Shown in pieces: positions 1 through 5,665 of a stretch of 5,665 nt of DNA. Each line of letters starts with the position of its first letter. Within the stretch, counting starts at the first letter, position 1. The DNA is taken from positions 1-5,665 of the IMG/VR virus record IMGVR_UViG_3300045988_004551, one strand, 5' to 3'. Below the pieces are notes generated by a model. That model was not told the DNA's origin. It saw nothing but the letters and a program-made list of their open reading frames with translations, and made no database searches. The DNA is from a virus. Position numbers and translations under genes: made by a program.

Positions 1-99
1 AAGTAACTTCAGGGAAACCGCAACAGCAAAGGCCACCGAAGCCGGAGAGACCGTGAGGCGCACATACCTCTGGGAACTCAACGAGAAAGGCGAAAAGGT
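1..99. repeat. Terminal redundancy, left copy, identical to 5567-5665. Signature of a circular genome linearised with an assembly overlap.
   Basis: Base-by-base comparison shows 1-99 identical to 5567-5665 (99/99). This implies a 5,566-nt circle. Confidence 0.95.
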
Positions 100-463
100 G
101 CTGACGCTTGAACAGGTCATCGACCAGCAGGCGGAAATCGACAGCTATATGGAAGAGACCAAGCTGGAAAACATCATCCGGAGGGCATCCATCGACCCTG
201 ACCTTGCGGCCAGACTGATGCCGGACATGGGTGGCGGACTTCAGGATGCAACCAATATGCCGGAGAATCTGATGGAGCTTCAGAACATCATGCTGCAGGC
301 CGAGCAAATCTGGAATAAAATCCCAAAAGAAATAAAGCTCAAGTTTGACAATGACGTCGATAAATTCGTGGCAAGCTTCGGAACTATCGACTGGGCAAAA
401 AATCTGGGCATTTATCAAGAAAATCCGCCTGAAGAGCCTAAAAAGGAGGAAGCCACTGAATGA
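1..463 (+). CDS. VP3: Internal scaffolding protein VP3, 3' portion. The gene crosses the window break: true start ATG 5550, and the full gene on the circle is 5550..5566 plus 1..463 (159 aa).
   Basis: The frame is open from base 2 to TGA 461-463. On the circle the same frame starts at ATG 5550, preceded by AAGGAGA (5534-5540). The C-terminal half reads ...QAEQIWNKIPKEIKLKFDNDVDKFVASF..., matching the remembered gokushovirus VP3 pattern F..LP..IR..F.NDP..F. The N-terminus MAYRS... and the ...KLENIIRRA... segment also look VP3-like. The stop overlaps the VP1 start (ATGA at 460-463). An alternative start, GTG 53 with GGAGA at 44-48, would give 136 aa. Confidence 0.8.
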   Translation, partial: SNFRETATAKATEAGETVRRTYLWELNEKGEKVLTLEQVIDQQAEIDSYMEETKLENIIRRASIDPDLAARLMPDMGGGLQDATNMPENLMELQNIMLQAEQIWNKIPKEIKLKFDNDVDKFVASFGTIDWAKNLGIYQENPPEEPKKEEATE

Positions 464-2124
464 ACAGAAACAAAGACGCAGGGTTTAACCAGGTCCCGAG
501 ACTGGACATTACAAGAAGTCGCTTCAAACGACCACAGGACGTCAAGCTAACAATGAACGCGGGCCAACTCATTCCGTTCTATGTGGACGAAGTGCTCCCG
601 GGCGACACCTTCAGCATCGACCAAGCAGCAATTATCCGTATGACAACGCCTATCTTCCCGGTTATGGACAACTGCCACATGGATATTTACTACTTCAACG
701 TACCGTGCCGTATCATCTGGGACCATTTCAAACGATTTATGGGCGAAAACGATGCCGGGCCGTGGGCGCAGACTCAGGAATACACCATCCCACAGATCAA
801 AGTAACTGGCACAGCTGACAAACCAGCACCGTACGAAGGAAGCATCATGGACTACATGGGCATTCCTACCAAGGTGAGCAAAGGAGCTGATAGTGAATTC
901 AGCATTAATGCGCTGCCATTCAGAGCCTACGCTATGATTTGGCAGGAGTGGTTCCGAGACCAAAACGTGGACAATCCGGCCATCAACAGCACCGCAGACG
1001 CAACCGTAAACTATACGGACGATGAAACCAAGGGCATGGACGCGGAAACGCCGGATTTAGAGTACATTCTTCAAAACGCATACACCGGAGGCAGACCGCT
1101 GCCGGTGAATAAGTACCACGACTACTTCACATCGGCTTTGCCGAATCCTCAGAAAGCGGGAGAACCGGTAAAAGTCCCACTGAGCGGTACAGCCGACATA
1201 TCAGTATACGAAGACAGAGATTTAACGAAACTGGCAAACCTGAATGGAAACTACAGCTGGCCAGGCCCAATGTCGTACCAATACGACAGCAAATACAATG
1301 GAAGATCTATAAGCATGGCATCGGGAGATAACATGCACTTCCTGGGCGCAAACCTGGGAGAAGCATCGGCAACAACCATCAATCAGCTGCGGCAGGCATT
1401 CCAGGTACAGAAGTACTATGAACAGCTGTCACGAGGCGGCAGCCGCTACCGCGAGATGATTTATTCGCTATTTCACACCAGAATCAGCGATAAGACAGTA
1501 CAAATTCCCGAGTATCTGGGTGGCAAGCGCATTACAATCAACATGAGTCAGGTTATCCAGACCAGTGGAACGACACAGGAAAGTCCGCAGGGCAACGCAG
1601 CGGCAATAAGCGTTACGCCATTCAATGGCAGCATGTTCACGAAAAGCTTCGAAGAGCACGGCTATGTTATCGGCGTGTGCTGCATCCGGCATGACCATAC
1701 CTACCAGCAGGGCTTGGAGCGCATGTGGAGCCGCAAGACTAATCTGGACTTCTATTATCCTGTCTTCGCAAATCTGGGCGAGCAGGCAGTTCTGAAGAAG
1801 GAGCTGTATCTCACTGGCACGGAAACTGATGAGCAGGCATTCGGCTATCAGGAAGCATGGGCAGAGTACAGAATGAAGCCAAACCGTATCAGCGGCAAGT
1901 TCCGTTCGAATGCAACGGGGACGTTGGACAGCTGGCACTACGGCGACAACTACAAGGAAACTCCCAGCTTAAGCCAGGCATGGATGAAGGAAGGAGACTC
2001 CGAAATCCAGAGGACTCTGGCCGTGGACAACGAGCCTCAGTTTATCATGGATACCGTCATCTACAATACATCTGTGAGACCTATGCCTATGTACAGCATT
2101 CCGGGCCTCGTAGACCATCACTAA
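460..2124 (+). CDS. VP1: Major capsid protein VP1 (Microviridae F/VP1 jelly-roll capsid family), 554 aa
   Basis: This is the longest ORF. AGGAGG at 444-449 lies 10 nt upstream of ATG 460. The ATGA overlap with the VP3 stop suggests translational coupling. The N-terminal region [14 protein letters not shown]..(8)..[23 protein letters not shown] is the characteristic Microviridae major capsid N-terminal signature. Size is typical of gokushovirus VP1. Confidence 0.95.
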
Positions 2125-2134
2125 GAAAGGGGGA

Positions 2135-2165
2135 AGCCCGGGGCAAAACCCCGGGCTATTTTATT
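2135..2165 (+). terminator. Intergenic GC hairpin plus U-rich tail between VP1 and VP2. Candidate partial intrinsic terminator/attenuator.
   Basis: AGCCCGGGG (2135-2143) pairs perfectly with CCCCGGGCT (2149-2157) around loop CAAAA. It is followed by ATTTTATT. It sits directly after the VP1 stop (2122-2124). Confidence 0.6.
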
Positions 2166-2972
2166 ATGGCGTTAGCAGCAATCGGCAGCGCACTACTCGG
2201 AATCGGCAAACAACTACTCCCAACAATCGCCGGAGGACTCATAAACAAGTTCCTGGGTGGAAACCTAATGGAAAGCAATGGAGGGAGCAGTCAGCACAAC
2301 GAAAGCTCGAGCCAAGGAGGCGGATACAGCAGCGCCGCCAGCGGCGTAAACCGAGAACAGAACCTGCAAGACTGGAACAGTATGCTAGGGGCAATTCAAA
2401 GCAATATGCAAAGCCAGCAGAAGTTTAACCGTAAAAGCATGTTCGAGCAAATGGGCTATAACACCATGGCGGCAATCACTCAGGGTGTGTATAACCAGAT
2501 AAGCAACAACGCAGCAATGGCCTACAACAGCGCAGAAGCAGCCAAAAACAGAGCTTGGCAAGAACAAATGAGCAGCACAGCTTATCAGCGAGCCGTGGAA
2601 GATATGCGAAAAGCAGGCATCAACCCTATCTTAGCATACCAACAGGGCGGAGCAAGCACTCCAGGAGGCGCACAAGCCACTATCAGCGGAGCAAGCATGG
2701 GACTCGCAAGCAGCAGTGCGGCGACAGCAAGCGCTCTCGGAGTAAGCCAGAACCACAACAACACATGGAGCAAAAGCGAAAGCAACTGGTACAACGCAGC
2801 ACAAGCAGTTGGAGACGCCACAAGCTGGTCACACACAAGCGCAGACAAAGCGTTAAAGGCGTTCGAAAACGTTCTGGGCCAGCTGGGAAACCTCACAAAC
2901 GACAATCCCAAAGGCAGTTCAACGAAAGACAAAGACGGCTTTGGAGGAAGCAAAGGAGGCAAATTCAAATAA
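2166..2972 (+). CDS. VP2: DNA pilot / minor capsid protein VP2, 268 aa
   Basis: ATG 2166 is the first start codon in frame after the VP1 stop; the track ORF 1857-2972 is an upstream open extension. The N-terminus is Gly/Ala/Leu-rich ([25 protein letters not shown]). A conserved pilot-protein block [21 protein letters not shown] is at 2577-2639. The C-terminal half is low-complexity and Ser/Ala/Gly/Asn-rich. An alternative internal start is ATG 2268, with GGTGGA at 2256-2261. Confidence 0.85.
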
Positions 2973-3992
2973 ATGGGATGCAATAAACCGCTAATCCGGT
3001 TTTATGTACCTCATGACAGAGAAGCGAGTGGGCGAGTGTACTCACTCGCTTCTTTTAACGAGATACACAAGACCAAAATGACATACGAAGACCTGATGTA
3101 TCGCAAAGATGTAATGATGATACCATGCGGACAATGCACAGGATGCAAACTACGCAAACGCAAAGACTGGGCCACACGAATGGAGCTGGAAGCATACAGC
3201 CACGAAAAGGAAAGCATCTGGTTTATCACACTAACCTATGATGACGACCATGTACCAACACAAGACACAGAAACAGGGGAAATCTTCAAGGGAGGCATAA
3301 ACGTCTGGAAAGGCACCTCAGAGCGTCCCAGAACGGTGCAAACTTTAAGCGTGGAGGATGTCCAACTATTCATGAAAAGGCTTAGAAAGGCCGTCAGCGG
3401 GCCTCTCAGGTACTTTCTAGCCGGAGAGTATGGAGACAACACCTCAAGACCGCACTATCACATGATACTATACGGATGGAATCCAGACGACTTAAAACCA
3501 ATTCACAAACTGTCAAGATTTGGACACTACACGAGCAATAAGCTGGTCAGAATCTGGGGACAAGGCACGGTCGATATAGCTCAAGCAACACCAGAAACAT
3601 ATAACTATGTAGCTGGATACGTGACCAAGAAACTATACGGAAACGACAAGGACAGGTATAAAAAAATGGGACTCATACCTCCATTCTGCGTGATGAGCCG
3701 AAAGCCAGGACTCGGGGACGAATGGTTTCAAAAGAATCAAGAAAGGCTATGGCAGCTTGGATACATCCAGCTGACAAACGGCAAGAGAGCAGCCATTCCA
3801 GAATATTATTGGCGAAAGCTGGAAGCTGAAAATCCTGAAAAAGCGTGGAGAATCAAGCGGTATCGACAAGAAAAAGCCATTGCGTCCCTAATCGAAAGAA
3901 ACATGGAAACTGACAAACAGTATGCCGAACAACTGGCCGATAAAGAAGCAGTCATGAAGAAGAAGATGTCCAAAGCAAAGGGCGTTTTTTAG
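2973..3992 (+). CDS. VP4: Replication initiation protein VP4 (HUH rolling-circle endonuclease, phiX174 gpA-like), 339 aa
   Basis: ATG 2973 abuts the VP2 stop (TAAATG), with AGGAGG at 2954-2959. RCR motifs are readable in the translation: motif 1 FITLTY (3222-3239), HUH motif 2 HYHMILY (3453-3473), and two-tyrosine motif 3 YVAGYVTKK (3606-3632). A Cys cluster PCGQCTGC lies at 3123-3146. Confidence 0.93.
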   Translation: MGCNKPLIRFYVPHDREASGRVYSLASFNEIHKTKMTYEDLMYRKDVMMIPCGQCTGCKLRKRKDWATRMELEAYSHEKESIWFITLTYDDDHVPTQDTETGEIFKGGINVWKGTSERPRTVQTLSVEDVQLFMKRLRKAVSGPLRYFLAGEYGDNTSRPHYHMILYGWNPDDLKPIHKLSRFGHYTSNKLVRIWGQGTVDIAQATPETYNYVAGYVTKKLYGNDKDRYKKMGLIPPFCVMSRKPGLGDEWFQKNQERLWQLGYIQLTNGKRAAIPEYYWRKLEAENPEKAWRIKRYRQEKAIASLIERNMETDKQYAEQLADKEAVMKKKMSKAKGVF

Positions 3993-4001
3993 CTCTGGTG
4001 T

Positions 4002-4059
4002 CACTCAGCCAAGTAACTATCAAGTATATATACTTGGCTGAGTGTTTTTTAGTTTTTTT
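4002..4059 (+). terminator. Strong stem-loop followed by T runs, immediately after VP4. Rho-independent terminator of the main transcription unit; a possible additional origin role is hypothetical.
   Basis: CACTCAGCCAAGTA (4002-4015) pairs perfectly (14 bp) with TACTTGGCTGAGTG (4031-4044). The loop is 15 nt (ACTATCAAGTATATA). It is followed by T6 (4045-4050) and T7 (4053-4059). Confidence 0.8.
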
Positions 4060-4063
4060 ATCA

Positions 4064-4104
4064 GCGCGCGCGCACGCGCACGTAATCGCGCACGTACACG
4101 CACG
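4064..4104. repeat. Alternating purine-pyrimidine CG/CA tract (Z-DNA-prone) containing a direct repeat of CGCGCACGTA
   Basis: GCGCGCGCGCACGCGCACGTA (4064-4084) is 21 nt of perfect Pu/Py alternation. CGCGCACGTACACGCACG (4087-4104) is 18 nt more. CGCGCACGTA occurs at 4075-4084 and 4087-4096. The tract is flanked by T-rich and AT-rich DNA. Confidence 0.85.
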
Positions 4105-4150
4105 ATTTTTATTATATTATTATTTACTTGTTGTAGTCGTAGTAGTAGGG
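4105..4150. repeat. Near-pure AT tract with TTA microrepeats, followed by GTA trinucleotide repeats. Candidate easily melted element.
   Basis: 4105-4132 (ATTTTTATTATATTATTATTTACTTGTT) has only 2 G/C in 28 nt. 4133-4147 reads GTA GTC GTA GTA GTA. Confidence 0.7.
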
Positions 4151-4199
4151 AGTGTTGAAATGTTGAATACTATGAATTTTTATCCGTGGAACGATATTT

Positions 4200-4208
4200 T
4201 GTGGTTAA
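4200..4208 (-). promoter_or_regulatory. DnaA-box-like 9-mer (TTAACCACA on the - strand, 1 mismatch to TTATCCACA)
   Basis: The + strand reads TGTGGTTAA, preceded by TTT. It is part of a repeated TTTTGTGG-WWAA unit. Confidence 0.45.
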
Positions 4209-4226
4209 TTTTGATGTTGATACTTT

Positions 4227-4235
4227 TGTGGATAA
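4227..4235 (-). promoter_or_regulatory. Perfect consensus DnaA box (TTATCCACA on the - strand)
   Basis: The + strand reads TGTGGATAA, the exact reverse complement of TTATCCACA. Confidence 0.6.
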
Positions 4236-4261
4236 CTTGTTGAATTGTTGAAAGTGTAGCA

Positions 4262-4270
4262 ATATGCACA
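4262..4270 (+). promoter_or_regulatory. DnaA-box-like 9-mer (ATATGCACA, 1 mismatch to TTATNCACA) overlapping the left arm of a hairpin
   Basis: Read directly. Its orientation is opposite to the other three boxes. Positions 4265-4270 lie in the hairpin stem 4265-4284. Confidence 0.35.
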
Positions 4271-4284
4271 AAACCATTTGTGCA
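4265..4284. other. Perfect 8-bp hairpin TGCACAAA-ACCA-TTTGTGCA
   Basis: 4265-4272 is the exact reverse complement of 4277-4284, with a 4-nt loop ACCA. Confidence 0.8.
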
Positions 4285-4290
4285 ACTTTT

Positions 4291-4299
4291 TGTGGAAAA
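4291..4299 (-). promoter_or_regulatory. DnaA-box-like 9-mer (TTTTCCACA on the - strand; fits the relaxed TTWTNCACA)
   Basis: The + strand reads TGTGGAAAA, preceded by TTTT, and lies immediately upstream of the triple TGTTGAAAG repeat. Confidence 0.45.
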
Positions 4300-4337
4300 C
4301 CTGTTGAAAGTGTTGAAAGTGTTGAAAATGTAATTAG

Positions 4338-4410
4338 AGGCAGCTCGGCAGCTGGCCGAAAGGTTACGTCATGCTCTTCGTACGGCGCACCGCGCCTAGC
4401 GCATGACCTT
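4338..4410. other. GC-rich multi-hairpin island in an otherwise AT-rich spacer. Candidate ssDNA structural element (complementary-strand origin?) or small structured RNA.
   Basis: Hairpin 1 is CAGCT-CGGC-AGCTG (4341-4354). A GAAA tetraloop mini-stem is GCC-GAAA-GGT (4355-4364). An outer 7-bp stem GTCATGC (4368-4374) / GCATGAC (4401-4407) encloses the inner hairpin GGCGC-ACC-GCGCC (4384-4396) and the CGTACG palindrome (4379-4384). Confidence 0.6.
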
Positions 4411-4430
4411 CAATGCAAAATTCTTCTAAC

Positions 4431-4475
4431 TTTTTTTAAAAAAATCTTGACTTTTTTCTAAAAATATGGTACAAT
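4431..4475 (+). promoter_or_regulatory. Promoter P1: T7A7 UP-like tract, -35 TTGACT, 17-nt spacer, extended -10 TGgTACAAT
   Basis: TTGACT is at 4447-4452 and TACAAT at 4470-4475, with an exact 17-nt spacer. TG lies at 4467-4468. TTTTTTTAAAAAAA is at 4431-4444. The first downstream gene starts at 4504. Confidence 0.75.
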
Positions 4476-4503
4476 AAAATCACAGAAAGGAAAGGTGAAC
4501 ACC

Positions 4504-4689
4504 ATGCTGCACTTCTATGAAATCCGAAAACTTGACAAGAACGGTGAACCACACATCGTCCGAAAGCTCACAACAGAGCCAAAGATAGCAAAACAGGAGT
4601 TAAAAAAATACGCAGAAGAGAATCCGGGAGTTTATTCACTGTATCAAATTCACCAAGTAGCAGCATATTTTACGATAAAGGAGGATTGA
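4504..4689 (+). CDS. Hypothetical small protein, 61 aa (orphan; first gene after promoter P1)
   Basis: ATG 4504 is preceded by AAAGGTGA (4491-4498) at good spacing; the track's GTG 4495 lies inside the SD and is unlikely. The product is MLHFYEIRKLDKNGEPHIVRKLTTEPKIAKQELKKYAEENPGVYSLYQIHQVAAYFTIKED. I recognise no family. Confidence 0.6.
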   Translation: MLHFYEIRKLDKNGEPHIVRKLTTEPKIAKQELKKYAEENPGVYSLYQIHQVAAYFTIKED

Positions 4690-4714
4690 AAAAAAACCTC
4701 TTTTTTGATATAAT
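4686..4714 (+). promoter_or_regulatory. Promoter P2: -35 TTGAAA, 17-nt spacer, extended -10 TGaTATAAT
   Basis: TTGAAA is at 4686-4691 and overlaps the TGA stop (4687-4689) of the 61-aa ORF. TATAAT is at 4709-4714, TG at 4706-4707, and the spacer is exactly 17 nt. Confidence 0.7.
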
Positions 4715-4814
4715 GAAAATAATCAAACAGCACGAAAGTGTTCTTCTCAAATCCATTTATACAAAAATAACTTTACGAAAGAGGTGAATTGCCCTGACTC
4801 TCCAAGAAATCAAA

Positions 4815-4898
4815 ATGCTGTTTGAAAACATCCAAAAAATCCTGGCAATGCTGGACAAAATTTACCATGCAGTGACAGGCAACGAACCGGAGGCTTAA
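4815..4898 (+). CDS. Possible micro-ORF, 27 aa from ATG 4815 (34 aa if initiated at CTG 4794)
   Basis: The frame is open from 4788 to TAA 4896-4898, which ends 1 nt before the next gene's ATG 4900. A strong SD, AGAGGTGA (4780-4787), sits ~9 nt upstream of CTG 4794, whereas ATG 4815 has no clear SD. The product is (LTLQEIK)MLFENIQKILAMLDKIYHAVTGNEPEA. Confidence 0.3.
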   Translation: MLFENIQKILAMLDKIYHAVTGNEPEA

Positions 4899-4899
4899 C

Positions 4900-5127
4900 A
4901 TGGAGAAAAAACTGTGGAATGCAAGAGACCAGACCGACGAGAACCTTATGCGGGAACTGACAAAGACCTACAAGGCAATAGATGCCGCGTACAAAATGGT
5001 GCGACAGGCCGCAAACATCGAAGACGCAAAGTATTATATTGACATTGCGTTTAAGAAAAAAGCATTCGCCAGTAACATTGAGGTGGAAATCCTCAGAAGG
5101 GACATCAACCATGGCAAAGAGGAGTAA
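4900..5127 (+). CDS. Hypothetical protein, 75 aa, predicted mostly helical and charged (orphan)
   Basis: ATG 4900 is preceded by GGAGG (4889-4893) at 6-nt spacing. Its 3' end overlaps the next gene by 17 nt. I recognise no family. Confidence 0.65.
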   Translation: MEKKLWNARDQTDENLMRELTKTYKAIDAAYKMVRQAANIEDAKYYIDIAFKKKAFASNIEVEILRRDINHGKEE

Positions 5128-5230
5128 AGTTCGCAAATCCAAAGACGCGAAAATCTATAACAAGACCGCTCGAAAGACAAAGGCTATCAATCTGGGAAGC
5201 GGAGCGATGAGAGGAGGAATCCGGCTATGA
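5111..5230 (+). CDS. Small highly basic protein, 39 aa. Likely the DNA-binding/packaging protein (phiX174 J / chlamydiaphage ORF8 analogue).
   Basis: The product is MAKRSKVRKSKDAKIYNKTARKTKAINLGSGAMRGGIRL, with 13 of 39 residues K/R. The C-terminal MRGGIRL and internal TKAIN match my recollection of gokushovirus small basic proteins. ATG 5111 lies inside the track ORF 4982-5230. The stop overlaps the next ATG (ATGA at 5227-5230). Confidence 0.65.
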   Translation: MAKRSKVRKSKDAKIYNKTARKTKAINLGSGAMRGGIRL

Positions 5231-5325
5231 GCGCAGTATACACAGGAGTAACAGTGGCATGCCTCGCAGCAGGCCTTGTCTTCATCGTATTCGCAATCGA
5301 CATCATCAAAGAATGGTTCAAATAA
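5227..5325 (+). CDS. Unlisted 32-aa single-pass transmembrane peptide. Function unknown; candidate lysis or membrane-targeting factor.
   Basis: It is not in the ORF track because it is too short. ATG 5227 overlaps the upstream stop (ATGA). A strong SD, GAGGAGG, lies at 5211-5217 with 9-nt spacing. The product is MSAVYTGVTVACLAAGLVFIVFAIDIIKEWFK, a ~20-residue hydrophobic core with a charged/aromatic C-tail. TAA is at 5323-5325, and the next gene's SD starts right after it. Confidence 0.5.
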   Translation: MSAVYTGVTVACLAAGLVFIVFAIDIIKEWFK

Positions 5326-5335
5326 GGAGAGCAGC

Positions 5336-5572
5336 ATGAACGTATACGGAATTTTCGACAACTGCGTGATGGGCTATATCACCATCTTTACCGAACGTGA
5401 CGACAAAGTGGCCGAACGCAATTTCAAAATCGCACTGACCGATGAACGAAACATCATGAGCAAGACACCGAGTGATTATCGGCTGGTACGACTGGCAAAG
5501 TTTGACGAGAAAACGGGCCTGTTTAAGAACGAAAAGGAGAACATCTTCGATGGCGTATCGCTCAGTAAGTAA
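5336..5572 (+). CDS. Conserved gokushovirus-type small nonstructural protein (ORF5/VP5-like), 78 aa
   Basis: ATG 5336 is preceded by AAGGAGA (5324-5330); the track's earlier start at 5276 is an upstream extension. The product MNVYGIFDN..Y...F..R.D..AERNF........(N).....PSDYRLVRLAKFDEKTGLF fits the remembered pattern (Y.I.D....F..PF....D..A.R.F ... P.DY.L..LG.FD..TG) of the small ORF5/VP5 family of Microviridae. The last 6 nt (AAGTAA) lie in the terminal repeat. The 3' end overlaps the VP3 start (5550) by 23 nt. Confidence 0.7.
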   Translation: MNVYGIFDNCVMGYITIFTERDDKVAERNFKIALTDERNIMSKTPSDYRLVRLAKFDEKTGLFKNEKENIFDGVSLSK

Positions 5573-5665
5573 CTTCAGGGAAACCGCAACAGCAAAGGCC
5601 ACCGAAGCCGGAGAGACCGTGAGGCGCACATACCTCTGGGAACTCAACGAGAAAGGCGAAAAGGT
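5550..5665 (+). CDS. VP3: Internal scaffolding protein VP3, 5' portion (the same gene as 1..463; continues past the window end / around the circle)
   Basis: ATG 5550 has AAGGAGA at 5534-5540. The in-frame stop TGA at 5457-5459 bounds the frame upstream. The reading MAYRSVSNFRETATAKATEAGETVRRTYLWELNEKGEKV joins seamlessly to the ORF at the window start. Confidence 0.75.
   Translation, partial: MAYRSVSNFRETATAKATEAGETVRRTYLWELNEKGEK
5567..5665. repeat. Terminal redundancy, right copy (identical to 1-99)
   Basis: 99/99 identity with the window start. Confidence 0.95.

Follow-up and report, generated by a model that had tools for sequence, protein, structure and literature searches.

The stretch analysed here (the window) comprises the 5,665 nt of IMG/VR record IMGVR_UViG_3300045988_004551, positions 1 to 5,665, and holds one gokushovirus genome, circular and 5566 nt long, with a terminal redundancy of 99 nt. 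Every gene of this genome lies on the + strand, including a VP3-like gene (53-463), VP1 (460-2124), VP2 (2166-2972), VP4 (2973-3992, stop codon 3990-3992) and a block of small genes that begins with an ATG at 4504 behind a ribosome-binding site at 4485-4500. The encoded set consists of VP1-VP5-type proteins and small open reading frames (ORFs) only, and its sole replication protein is the HUH nuclease VP4. Bounded by the VP4 stop codon and the first small-gene ATG, the region 3993-4503 makes up 9.2% of the genome, and its core (4105-4330), a cassette laid out like the unwinding half of a bacterial chromosomal origin, is the subject of this report. An earlier reading of the letters, made without database searches (the original prediction), had described six ordered sub-elements in this region: a terminator, a CG/CA tract, an AT tract, DnaA-like boxes with TGTTGAA iterons, a GC-rich island and a promoter. 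We found each of them where that reading had placed it.

The core opens with an AT-rich tract (4105-4127, without strand), a candidate DNA unwinding element (DUE). It coincides with the melting minimum of the genome: 4105-4129 is the least stable 25-bp duplex, at -21.5 kcal/mol against a mean of -33.4 kcal/mol (sd 3.1), or 3.8 sd below the mean, and the AT tract with microrepeats that had been predicted here is borne out. The microrepeats themselves, first described as TTA/GTA units, do exist, but their nature has to be revised. Positions 4128-4148 read TTG TTG TAG TCG TAG TAG TAG, and the TAG units form a DnaA-trio array (TAG TCG TAG TAG TAG, 4134-4148, + strand, 3'-GAT-5' repeats), whose complement consists of CTA repeats and thereby gives the TnnT pattern of the DnaD recognition element. 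A junction motif, ACTTGTTG (WACTTGTTG, 4126-4133, + strand), lies between the AT tract and the trios and is phage-specific and almost invariant. On the other side of the trios, a 4-nt G-rich spacer, GGAG (4149-4152, + strand), is the equivalent of the 'GC cluster' of bacterial origins and leads to a trio-proximal tandem pair of boxes, TGTTGAAAT / TGTTGAATA (4153-4169, + strand), which start 8 nt apart and overlap by one base. The proximal box TGTTGAAAT has three mismatches to the E. coli consensus and one to TGTTGAAAA, the box type of the host origins described below.

Further boxes follow. A DnaA-like box in the opposite orientation, TTATCCGTG (4180-4188, given on the + strand), has two mismatches and reads TTATCCTTG in close relatives. 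The first box array (4200-4254, + strand) contains TGTGGTTAA at 4200, TGTTGATAC at 4215, the consensus TGTGGATAA at 4227, TGTTGAATT at 4238 and TGTTGAAAG at 4246, and the second (4291-4328, + strand) begins with TGTGGAAAA at 4291 and continues with TGTTGAAAG, TGTTGAAAG and TGTTGAAAA at 9-nt spacing. Between the two arrays stands a perfect 8-bp hairpin or palindrome, TGCACAAA-ACCA-TTTGTGCA (4265-4284; -8.1 kcal/mol, z = -4.2), the place of which is taken in other lineages by a different short hairpin, CGTCA-nnn-TGACG; a DnaA-box hairpin formed by 4224-4234 and 4263-4273 is confined to close relatives. The heptamer TGTTGAA occurs seven times without mismatch, on the + strand and inside 4153-4326 in every case; chance would give 1.1, and none of 200 shuffles reaches seven. 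The canonical TTATCCACA is present exactly at 4227-4235 (- strand) and with one mismatch at 4200-4208 and 4291-4299 (both - strand), in a single orientation throughout, and matches of this kind number five in the window against 0.9 expected.

Alignment with related microviruses, which had been proposed as a check on the original prediction, recovered the cassette in at least 134 gokushovirus genomes, whose VP4 and VP1 proteins are 33-94% and 38-94% identical to those of the window. A BLAST search of deposited phage genomes matched the region, in whole or in part, to 48 gokushovirus records, which come from the faeces of humans, pigs, monkeys, dogs, minks and raccoons. The stretch 4214-4328, which contains the second array, is the most widely conserved, matching where coding DNA no longer aligns, and in several records it is the sole DNA that still aligns to the window genome. 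One conserved 18-mer retrieves at least 119 IMG/VR contigs, nearly all of them microviruses of 5.2-6.2 kb. Long IMG/VR contigs with a match to the iteron pair (L054, L077, L097, L109, L125 and L137) have neither trios nor arrays and were rejected as chance matches.

The sub-elements differ in their distribution among 141 fetched sequences. The AT/trio/box part was matched in 119 and the second box array in 117, against 50 for the GC island, 34 for the terminator, 28 for the promoter and 24 for the CG/CA tract. The region is therefore a mosaic of modules round one universal core, and the outcome that the original prediction had named as fatal to itself, an absence of any sub-element conservation among relatives, is not what these sequences show.

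More than 110 unique sequences share one order of the core: an AT-rich tract, WAC TTG TTG, TAG NNG TAG TAG TAG, a G-rich spacer, a pair of 9-mers 8-9 nt apart and, after about 45-60 nt, arrays of 9-mers spaced at 8, 9, 11 or 12 nt and often interrupted by a short hairpin. The commonest 9-mer type is TGTTGAAAn (863 copies of TGTTGAA versus 96 of TGTGGAA in 121 cassettes). It interchanges with TGTGGAAAA or TGTGGATAA at homologous positions, and the trio-proximal position is occupied in relatives by TGTGGAAAA, AGTGGAAAA, TGTTGAAAA or TGTTGAAAT, interchangeably. Over 120 unique cassettes, the mean A+T content of the 25 nt that precede the trios on their 5' side is 73%; three or more NAN trios stand beside the spacer in 115, a 9-mer with at most one mismatch to TGTTGAAAA lies within 16 nt of the trios in 117, and a box with at most two mismatches to the universal consensus TGTGGATAA, the default rule, is found in 81. 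The commonest spacer is 4 nt long, this being the offset of the best consensus-like box in 76 of the 120. WACTTGTTG is present in nearly all of 114 unique cassettes.

The cassette always adjoins the VP4 gene, although its side and orientation vary. It lies downstream of VP4 in 89 genomes (83 in gene sense, six inverted) and upstream, between VP2 and VP4 and inverted, in 31. Relative to the genes it is inverted in 40 of 134 genomes (L010, L011, L012, L018-L021 and 33 IMG/VR loci), and in MG945447 it is flipped between flanks that are the same as in direct relatives. Near-identical cassettes also stand beside VP4 genes whose products are only 44% identical to that of the window (L022, L032 and L033, with 100% identity over 93 nt of box array, and 92% to the window's cassette in the variable middle), and the cassette therefore moves between lineages by recombination. 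Its occurrence in both orientations fits, and argues for, an orientation-independent action on duplex DNA.

The idea that the cassette defines the packaged strand gained no support from either of two tests, both of them weak, given small counts and a possibly dominant influence of codon usage. The four-fold-site A/T skew in VP1 keeps its sign between direct and inverted clades, and the coding-strand ratio of singleton C>T to G>A changes is 2.1 in the inverted clade versus 0.4-1.1 in direct clades (small counts), a value of 2.1 being the opposite of what antisense packaging predicts. As a side observation, coding-strand four-fold sites are strongly biased to A over T in all clades (skew +0.36 to +0.62; window VP1 460-2124 and 118 relatives), unlike the T-rich third positions of phiX174.

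The closest counterparts of the cassette lie in bacterial chromosomes. One genome per species was scanned for three closely spaced copies of TGTTGAA, and among the matches listed most were unrelated tandem repeats, none contained VP1 or VP4, so that there was no sign of an integrated prophage, and four had the complete phage-like grammar (L165, L182, L187 and L214). These four come from two Oscillospiraceae metagenome-assembled genomes (MAGs), one Ruminococcus MAG and one 'Clostridiales' rumen MAG. All four elements lie directly downstream of dnaA. Where the flanks are complete, in three of them, the element is situated between dnaA and dnaN (Pfam, tblastn); in the fourth, the locus edge shows part of a match to dnaN. 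The dnaA-dnaN interval is the classical site of the unwinding half of a Firmicute origin. One of the four reads tatatatgtt-TAGTAGTAGTAGTAG-GGGG-TGTTGAAAC-TGTTGAAAAC, and behind this come arrays in which TGTTGAAAA and TGTGGAAAA are intermingled. Across the host origins, (TAG)4-5 stands at the place of the trios, the spacer is GGGG, GGTA or GG, the proximal pair is TGTTGAAAC TGTTGAAAAC or TGTTGAAAC TGTGGAAAA, and an AT-rich tract occupies the equivalent position. WACTTGTTG occurs in none of the four.

Two further kinds of locus were noticed. In a Stappiaceae MAG brought up by the same scan (L224, L233, L235 and L242), 170-240 copies of TGTTGAA per 8 kb form long tandem arrays unrelated to the phage element. 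In a Mesoaciditoga MAG (WGFY01000063, a Thermotogota bin; L256 2351-2901), (TAG)4 / GTAC / TGTTGAAAG TGTTGAAAAC with box arrays lies beside groES/groEL, not dnaA.

The boxes of the four host regions differ from the canonical type. Within each intergenic region, TTTCAACA occurs 4-23 times and TTATCCACA once at most, and the boxes are almost exclusively TTTTCAACA. The recognition helix reads RDHSTIVY in all four DnaA proteins (L165 2330-3712, L214 272-1633, L187 3487-4824 and L182 5092-6477), instead of the RDHTTV(I/L)H of B. subtilis (8BTG), Aquifex (2HCB) and E. coli (1J1V). Because of these four origins and the variant helix, the simplest reading is that TGTTGAAA would be a lineage-specific DnaA-box dialect of these bacteria, and the phage cassette a miniature of their origin. 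The 'iterons' of the phage are then most likely host-type DnaA boxes, rather than a separate class of initiator site for a plasmid-type Rep; a search of 72,556 plasmids with BLAST gave no match, so that the likeness to a plasmid origin in the original prediction is without support. The broader claim that this ordered layout is a replication-origin or regulatory module and not a spacer gains support from the four dnaA-dnaN regions together with the gokushovirus genomes. Homology to the host origins was not seen beyond the motifs: BLAST matches (up to 83% over 96 nt) fall only in the repeated box arrays, and the likeness would be compatible with capture of host DNA as well as with convergence. 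On the same comparison, the boxes point to relatives of Oscillospiraceae and Ruminococcus as the likely hosts of the phage.

A basal unwinding system consists of a DnaA box (at most two mismatches to the motif of the species, default TTATCCACA) or a pair of boxes, a GC-rich spacer of 0-16 nt (about 4 nt where there is no second box), at least three trios on the 5' tail and an AT-rich DUE (PMC8287927); the trio of C. difficile is CACCTACTACTATTACTACTATGA (PMC7561715), and TnnT is the DnaD recognition element on the complementary strand (PMC10201434). The cassette has the order, polarity and spacing of the systems at B. subtilis incC and C. difficile oriC2, with TAG/CTA trios 4 nt from a box pair, the most meltable AT tract flanking the trios and further box arrays beyond. 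On the strand reading TGTGGATAA, its boxes have the trios and, farther out, the AT tract on their 5' side, its spacer falls within the published 0-16 bp, three consecutive trios (TAG TAG TAG, 4140-4148) are preceded by TCG and TAG, and the easily melted element beside them is the genome-wide stability minimum. The four host origins and the E. coli DUE-R1 arrangement have the same polarity, the E. coli sequence having been checked against 5425 genomes. Descriptions of the incC and oriC2 systems are attributed to Richardson (2016 and 2019), alongside the cited papers, of which PMC8287927 is Pelliciari 2021.

Several features set the cassette apart from a bacterial oriC. It belongs to a 5.6-kb rolling-circle phage with single-stranded DNA (ssDNA) and lies between VP4 and the small genes, not beside dnaA; it is only about 225 nt long, invertible and recombining, its boxes point nearly all one way and overlap by one base, and it has WACTTGTTG in addition. 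The cassette would work like, or imitate, a basal unwinding system, but it is no chromosomal oriC. With plasmid iteron origins (pSC101, F, R6K and the P1 oriR) it shares direct repeats at about one helical turn, DnaA boxes, an AT-rich tract and a compact non-coding layout; plasmid iterons, however, bind a plasmid-encoded Rep of the RepA or pi type, whereas the window genome has no such gene and its repeats match the boxes of host origins. With the phiX174-type (+) origin, the primosome assembly site, the G4 oric and the M13 minus origin it shares the character of a non-coding replication signal in a small ssDNA replicon. Those signals are strand-specific, whereas the cassette occurs in both orientations and its direct-repeat boxes cannot form stems on a single strand; a conserved strand-specific structure, the mark of a single-strand initiation signal, is missing from it. 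The 'A site' of R6K, a DnaA-box hairpin that assembles an ABC primosome, indicates that DnaA can prime ssDNA replication.

The modules around the core have distributions of their own among the relatives. Behind VP4 stands an intrinsic terminator (4002-4059, + strand) with arms at 4002-4020 and 4026-4044, a stem of 14-19 bp and T6AGT7 at 4045-4059; its RNA fold of -23.2 kcal/mol (z = -5.2) is not equalled by any of 200 shuffles. It closes the VP1-VP2-VP4 transcript and insulates the origin-like cassette against upstream transcription. Next comes an alternating purine/pyrimidine CG/CA tract of 41 nt (4064-4104, without strand), Z-DNA-prone and adjoining the AT tract. Because its fold is weaker than those of its shuffles (z = +1.8), it is special for this alternation and not as a hairpin. 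Tracts like it are found no more than 400 nt from the trios in 67 of the 83 direct genomes and in 12 of the 37 inverted ones.

Beyond the arrays, a GC-rich island (4338-4410, + strand) has a nearly invariant 45-nt core, CATGCTCTTCGyACGGCGCACCGCGCCTAsCGCATGAC, with nested stems GTCATGC (4368-4374) / GCATGAC (4401-4407) and GGCGC (4384-4388) / GCGCC (4392-4396). The island is present in 44 of 83 direct genomes, in the gene-sense strand in all 44, and in none of 37 inverted ones. As a structured RNA or DNA it was rejected: its consensus stems do exist, but there is hardly any variation across the 49 unique sequences compared, with one double compensatory change, and the fold energy is ordinary (z = -1.4 to -1.5). 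Rfam, searched with all families on both strands at E up to 1, gave no match in 3993-4503. The island is a separate module, taken here as a sequence-specific site, and, being strand-specific, is a better candidate than the cassette for a strand-specific single-strand signal, its unexceptional fold notwithstanding.

A T7A7 tract (4431-4444, + strand) and a sigma-70-type promoter (4447-4475, + strand; TTGACT-17-TACAAT with a TG extended -10 and 10 of 12 hexamer matches) complete the region. The promoter drives the small-gene block, and the cassette thus lies in a transcriptionally quiet zone between the VP4 terminator and this promoter. Immediately downstream of the first small gene stands a second promoter, closer still to consensus (4686-4714, TTGAAA-17-TATAAT with TG), and no convincing ORF is seen in the roughly 100 nt that come next (window 4690-4795).

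From the anatomy of the core and its match to the dnaA-dnaN regions, we consider it probable that host DnaA binds 4105-4330 and that this stretch, a copy of a host origin in its layout, serves as a module for DNA unwinding and helicase loading. On the double-stranded replicative form (RF), host DnaA would bind the same-oriented 9-mer arrays, TGTTGAAAn and TGTGGA(A/T)AA alike. An oligomer of ATP-DnaA starting from the pair at 4153-4169 would cross the 4-nt G-rich spacer onto the TAG trios (4134-4148) and, once bound there, would melt the adjoining AT tract (4105-4127). The opened strands, the other strand with DnaD bound to CTA/TnnT, would admit DnaD, the helicase loader and the helicase, and then primase and polymerase. 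RF replication would in this way be started or assisted, the phage would gain a host-initiator-dependent entry into DNA synthesis and, as a side effect, multicopy RF would sequester DnaA. The stage that profits may be RF amplification, complementary-strand priming or the presentation of a single-stranded nick site to VP4. What exactly the module does for the phage, be it RF replication, priming, VP4 licensing or titration of DnaA, is less certain to us than the module as such.

A number of points weigh against this interpretation. Binding of DnaA to TGTTGAAA, in these bacteria or on the phage, is putative. The proximal box of the window satisfies the formal box rule only as a host-type box, and the paired boxes, at 8 nt with a one-base overlap, are packed more tightly than in B. 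subtilis. The assignment of hosts rests on four MAGs among the matches listed, and some gokushoviruses lack the cassette, MG945385 being one. Microvirus replication is a VP4-driven rolling circle and we know of no microvirus that needs DnaA, which leaves the benefit of the cassette to the phage unexplained. WACTTGTTG has no counterpart in the host origins, and the cassette therefore does more than copy oriC.

A bolder version of the DnaA-dependent unwinding module is conceivable but doubtful. The cassette would be a working DnaA-dependent origin, the RF could behave as an oriC minichromosome whose replication keeps pace with host DnaA-ATP, the phage would persist in a plasmid-like, non-integrated carrier state in Oscillospiraceae or Ruminococcus, and WACTTGTTG, at the border of the melted zone, would let DnaA license nicking by VP4. 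If this were true, the signal by which the host itself initiates would gate the replication of microviruses, and hosts of uncultured phages could be predicted from the dialect of origin boxes (TGTTGAAA versus TGTGGATAA).

Sequestration of DnaA, a side effect in the scheme above, might instead be the whole function. The arrays would titrate host DnaA (and DnaD) on multicopy RF and block host chromosome replication or reset DnaA-controlled transcription, with no initiation at the cassette, after the fashion of the B. subtilis 'inc' regions or E. coli datA. In favour are about a dozen boxes of the same type per genome, multiplied by RF copy number, and the cassette's indifference to orientation; extra DnaA-box regions reportedly inhibit initiation in B. 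subtilis, a finding attributed to Moriya in 1988. The datA locus, the B. subtilis inc regions and the Spo0A boxes of phi29 are, like the cassette, clusters of host-regulator sites that couple to the cell cycle or to development. Boxes alone would suffice for titration, yet the trios, the G-rich spacer, the polarity and the AT tract, all features of unwinding, are the most strictly conserved, and datA and inc, as titrating loci, are without trios and AT tract. We regard a pure sink or take-over device as unlikely.

We likewise give a low probability to a rolling-circle (+) origin of VP4, in which VP4 would nick at ACTTG/TTG (4126-4133) and would bind the repeats as its iterons. WACTTGTTG, nearly invariant and phage-specific, resembles both the phiX174 origin CAACTTG/ATA and the pC194 motif CTTG/ATA, and the cassette is always found beside the VP4 gene. 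HUH nucleases cut single-stranded DNA, and a hybrid compatible with the preferred interpretation would have the DnaA-melted AT tract present the nick site to VP4 in that form. However, the same repeats fill host chromosomal origins where there is no VP4, they stay TGTTGAA while VP4 drops to 33% identity, and three close relatives have ATTTG or AATTG in place of ACTTG. A (+) origin inverted in 40 of 134 genomes would also flip the packaged strand; the ACTTG motif is present, but neither the skew nor the singleton comparison shows a matching change of strand asymmetry.

Transcriptional control is a much weaker contender. The arrays, 120-300 nt upstream of a strong promoter and between it and the terminator, could be operators for DnaA or another regulator that tunes the promoter at 4447-4475. 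Such operators would need neither trios nor an AT tract; the cassette occurs inverted and also relocated between VP2 and VP4, and the promoter is matched in far fewer of the fetched sequences (28 of 141) than the box arrays (117 of 141). We hold this to be very improbable.

The likely hosts are Clostridia and TGTTGAA is one base from the 0A box TGTCGAA, so that the boxes could in principle be Spo0A sites through which the phage would halt its cycle when the cell sporulates, as phi29 is said to do in work attributed to Meijer (in 2005) and Castilla-Llorente (in 2006). TGTCGAA is absent from about 960 boxes in 121 cassettes, however, the fourth base being only T or G; without a 0A box, unlike phi29, the cassette was rejected as a Spo0A-box cluster, and the idea retains hardly any probability.

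That the region codes for small proteins has next to none: ORFs are open in the window at 3998-4243 (81 amino acids, hydrophobic) and 4264-4461 (65 amino acids), and MG945391 and MG945136 are annotated 'similar to hypothetical protein' at this position, but neither ORF matches a PHROG family, no frame spanning the core is kept open in the 120 unique relatives (every frame has a median of 24-50 codons and a minimum of 4-16), the distances between boxes (8, 9, 11 and 12 nt) are for the most part not divisible by three, and in 40 genomes the cassette is on the strand opposite all genes. The original prediction of no convincing gene in about 510 nt thus holds, and a conserved coding signal in homologues, which it had itself named as the evidence that would overturn it, was looked for in these relatives and not found, so the coding hypothesis is refuted on that prediction's own terms.

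The kind of element described here, made of DnaA boxes, trios and a DUE, is well known. What appears to be new is such a module in a rolling-circle ssDNA phage, its behaviour as a cassette, the TGTTGAAA dialect common to it and Oscillospirales origins, and the added junction motif. Literature searches for Microviridae with DnaA box returned no description; those for Gokushovirinae or microvirus with DnaA, and for Microviridae with oriC, returned only papers whose titles and abstracts concern unrelated subjects; and those for DnaA-trio with phage returned work on bacterial origins or replication in general, with no phage element.

Related modules may extend beyond this group. Elements of the form (TAG)n / GGGG / TGTGGATAA TGTGGATAA with canonical arrays occur in IMG/VR contigs of 16-162 kb (L262, L273, L291, L272, L298, L281, L287, L288 and L297). 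No dnaA match was found in the fetched loci of these phage-like contigs, and the neighbours in L298 and L262 encode a cell-wall hydrolase, an ExoX-like protein and proteins of unknown function. Origin mimicry may thus be more widespread among phages. Separately, a 5955-nt IMG/VR microvirus (L295, VP1 41% identical) contains TTACCCACA-gggc-TAGTAGTAG-acatgccc-TGTGGATAA, which may reflect chance or else a minimal trio/box element, made up of canonical boxes, in another microvirus lineage.

Microviruses are the textbook minimal rolling-circle phages, for which a phage nuclease and host elongation factors are thought to be enough. The cassette suggests that an ssDNA phage recruits the origin machinery of its host; if so, hundreds of gut gokushoviruses would also engage the host initiator DnaA. 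It may serve as a compact natural substrate for studies of DnaA-trio unwinding, and it indicates that origin modules can travel and invert as cassettes among phages. It would also provide a testable handle on the replication of abundant uncultured phages of Gram-positive gut anaerobes, and a prediction of their hosts as Oscillospiraceae or Ruminococcus with the TGTTGAAA box and a variant DnaA helix.

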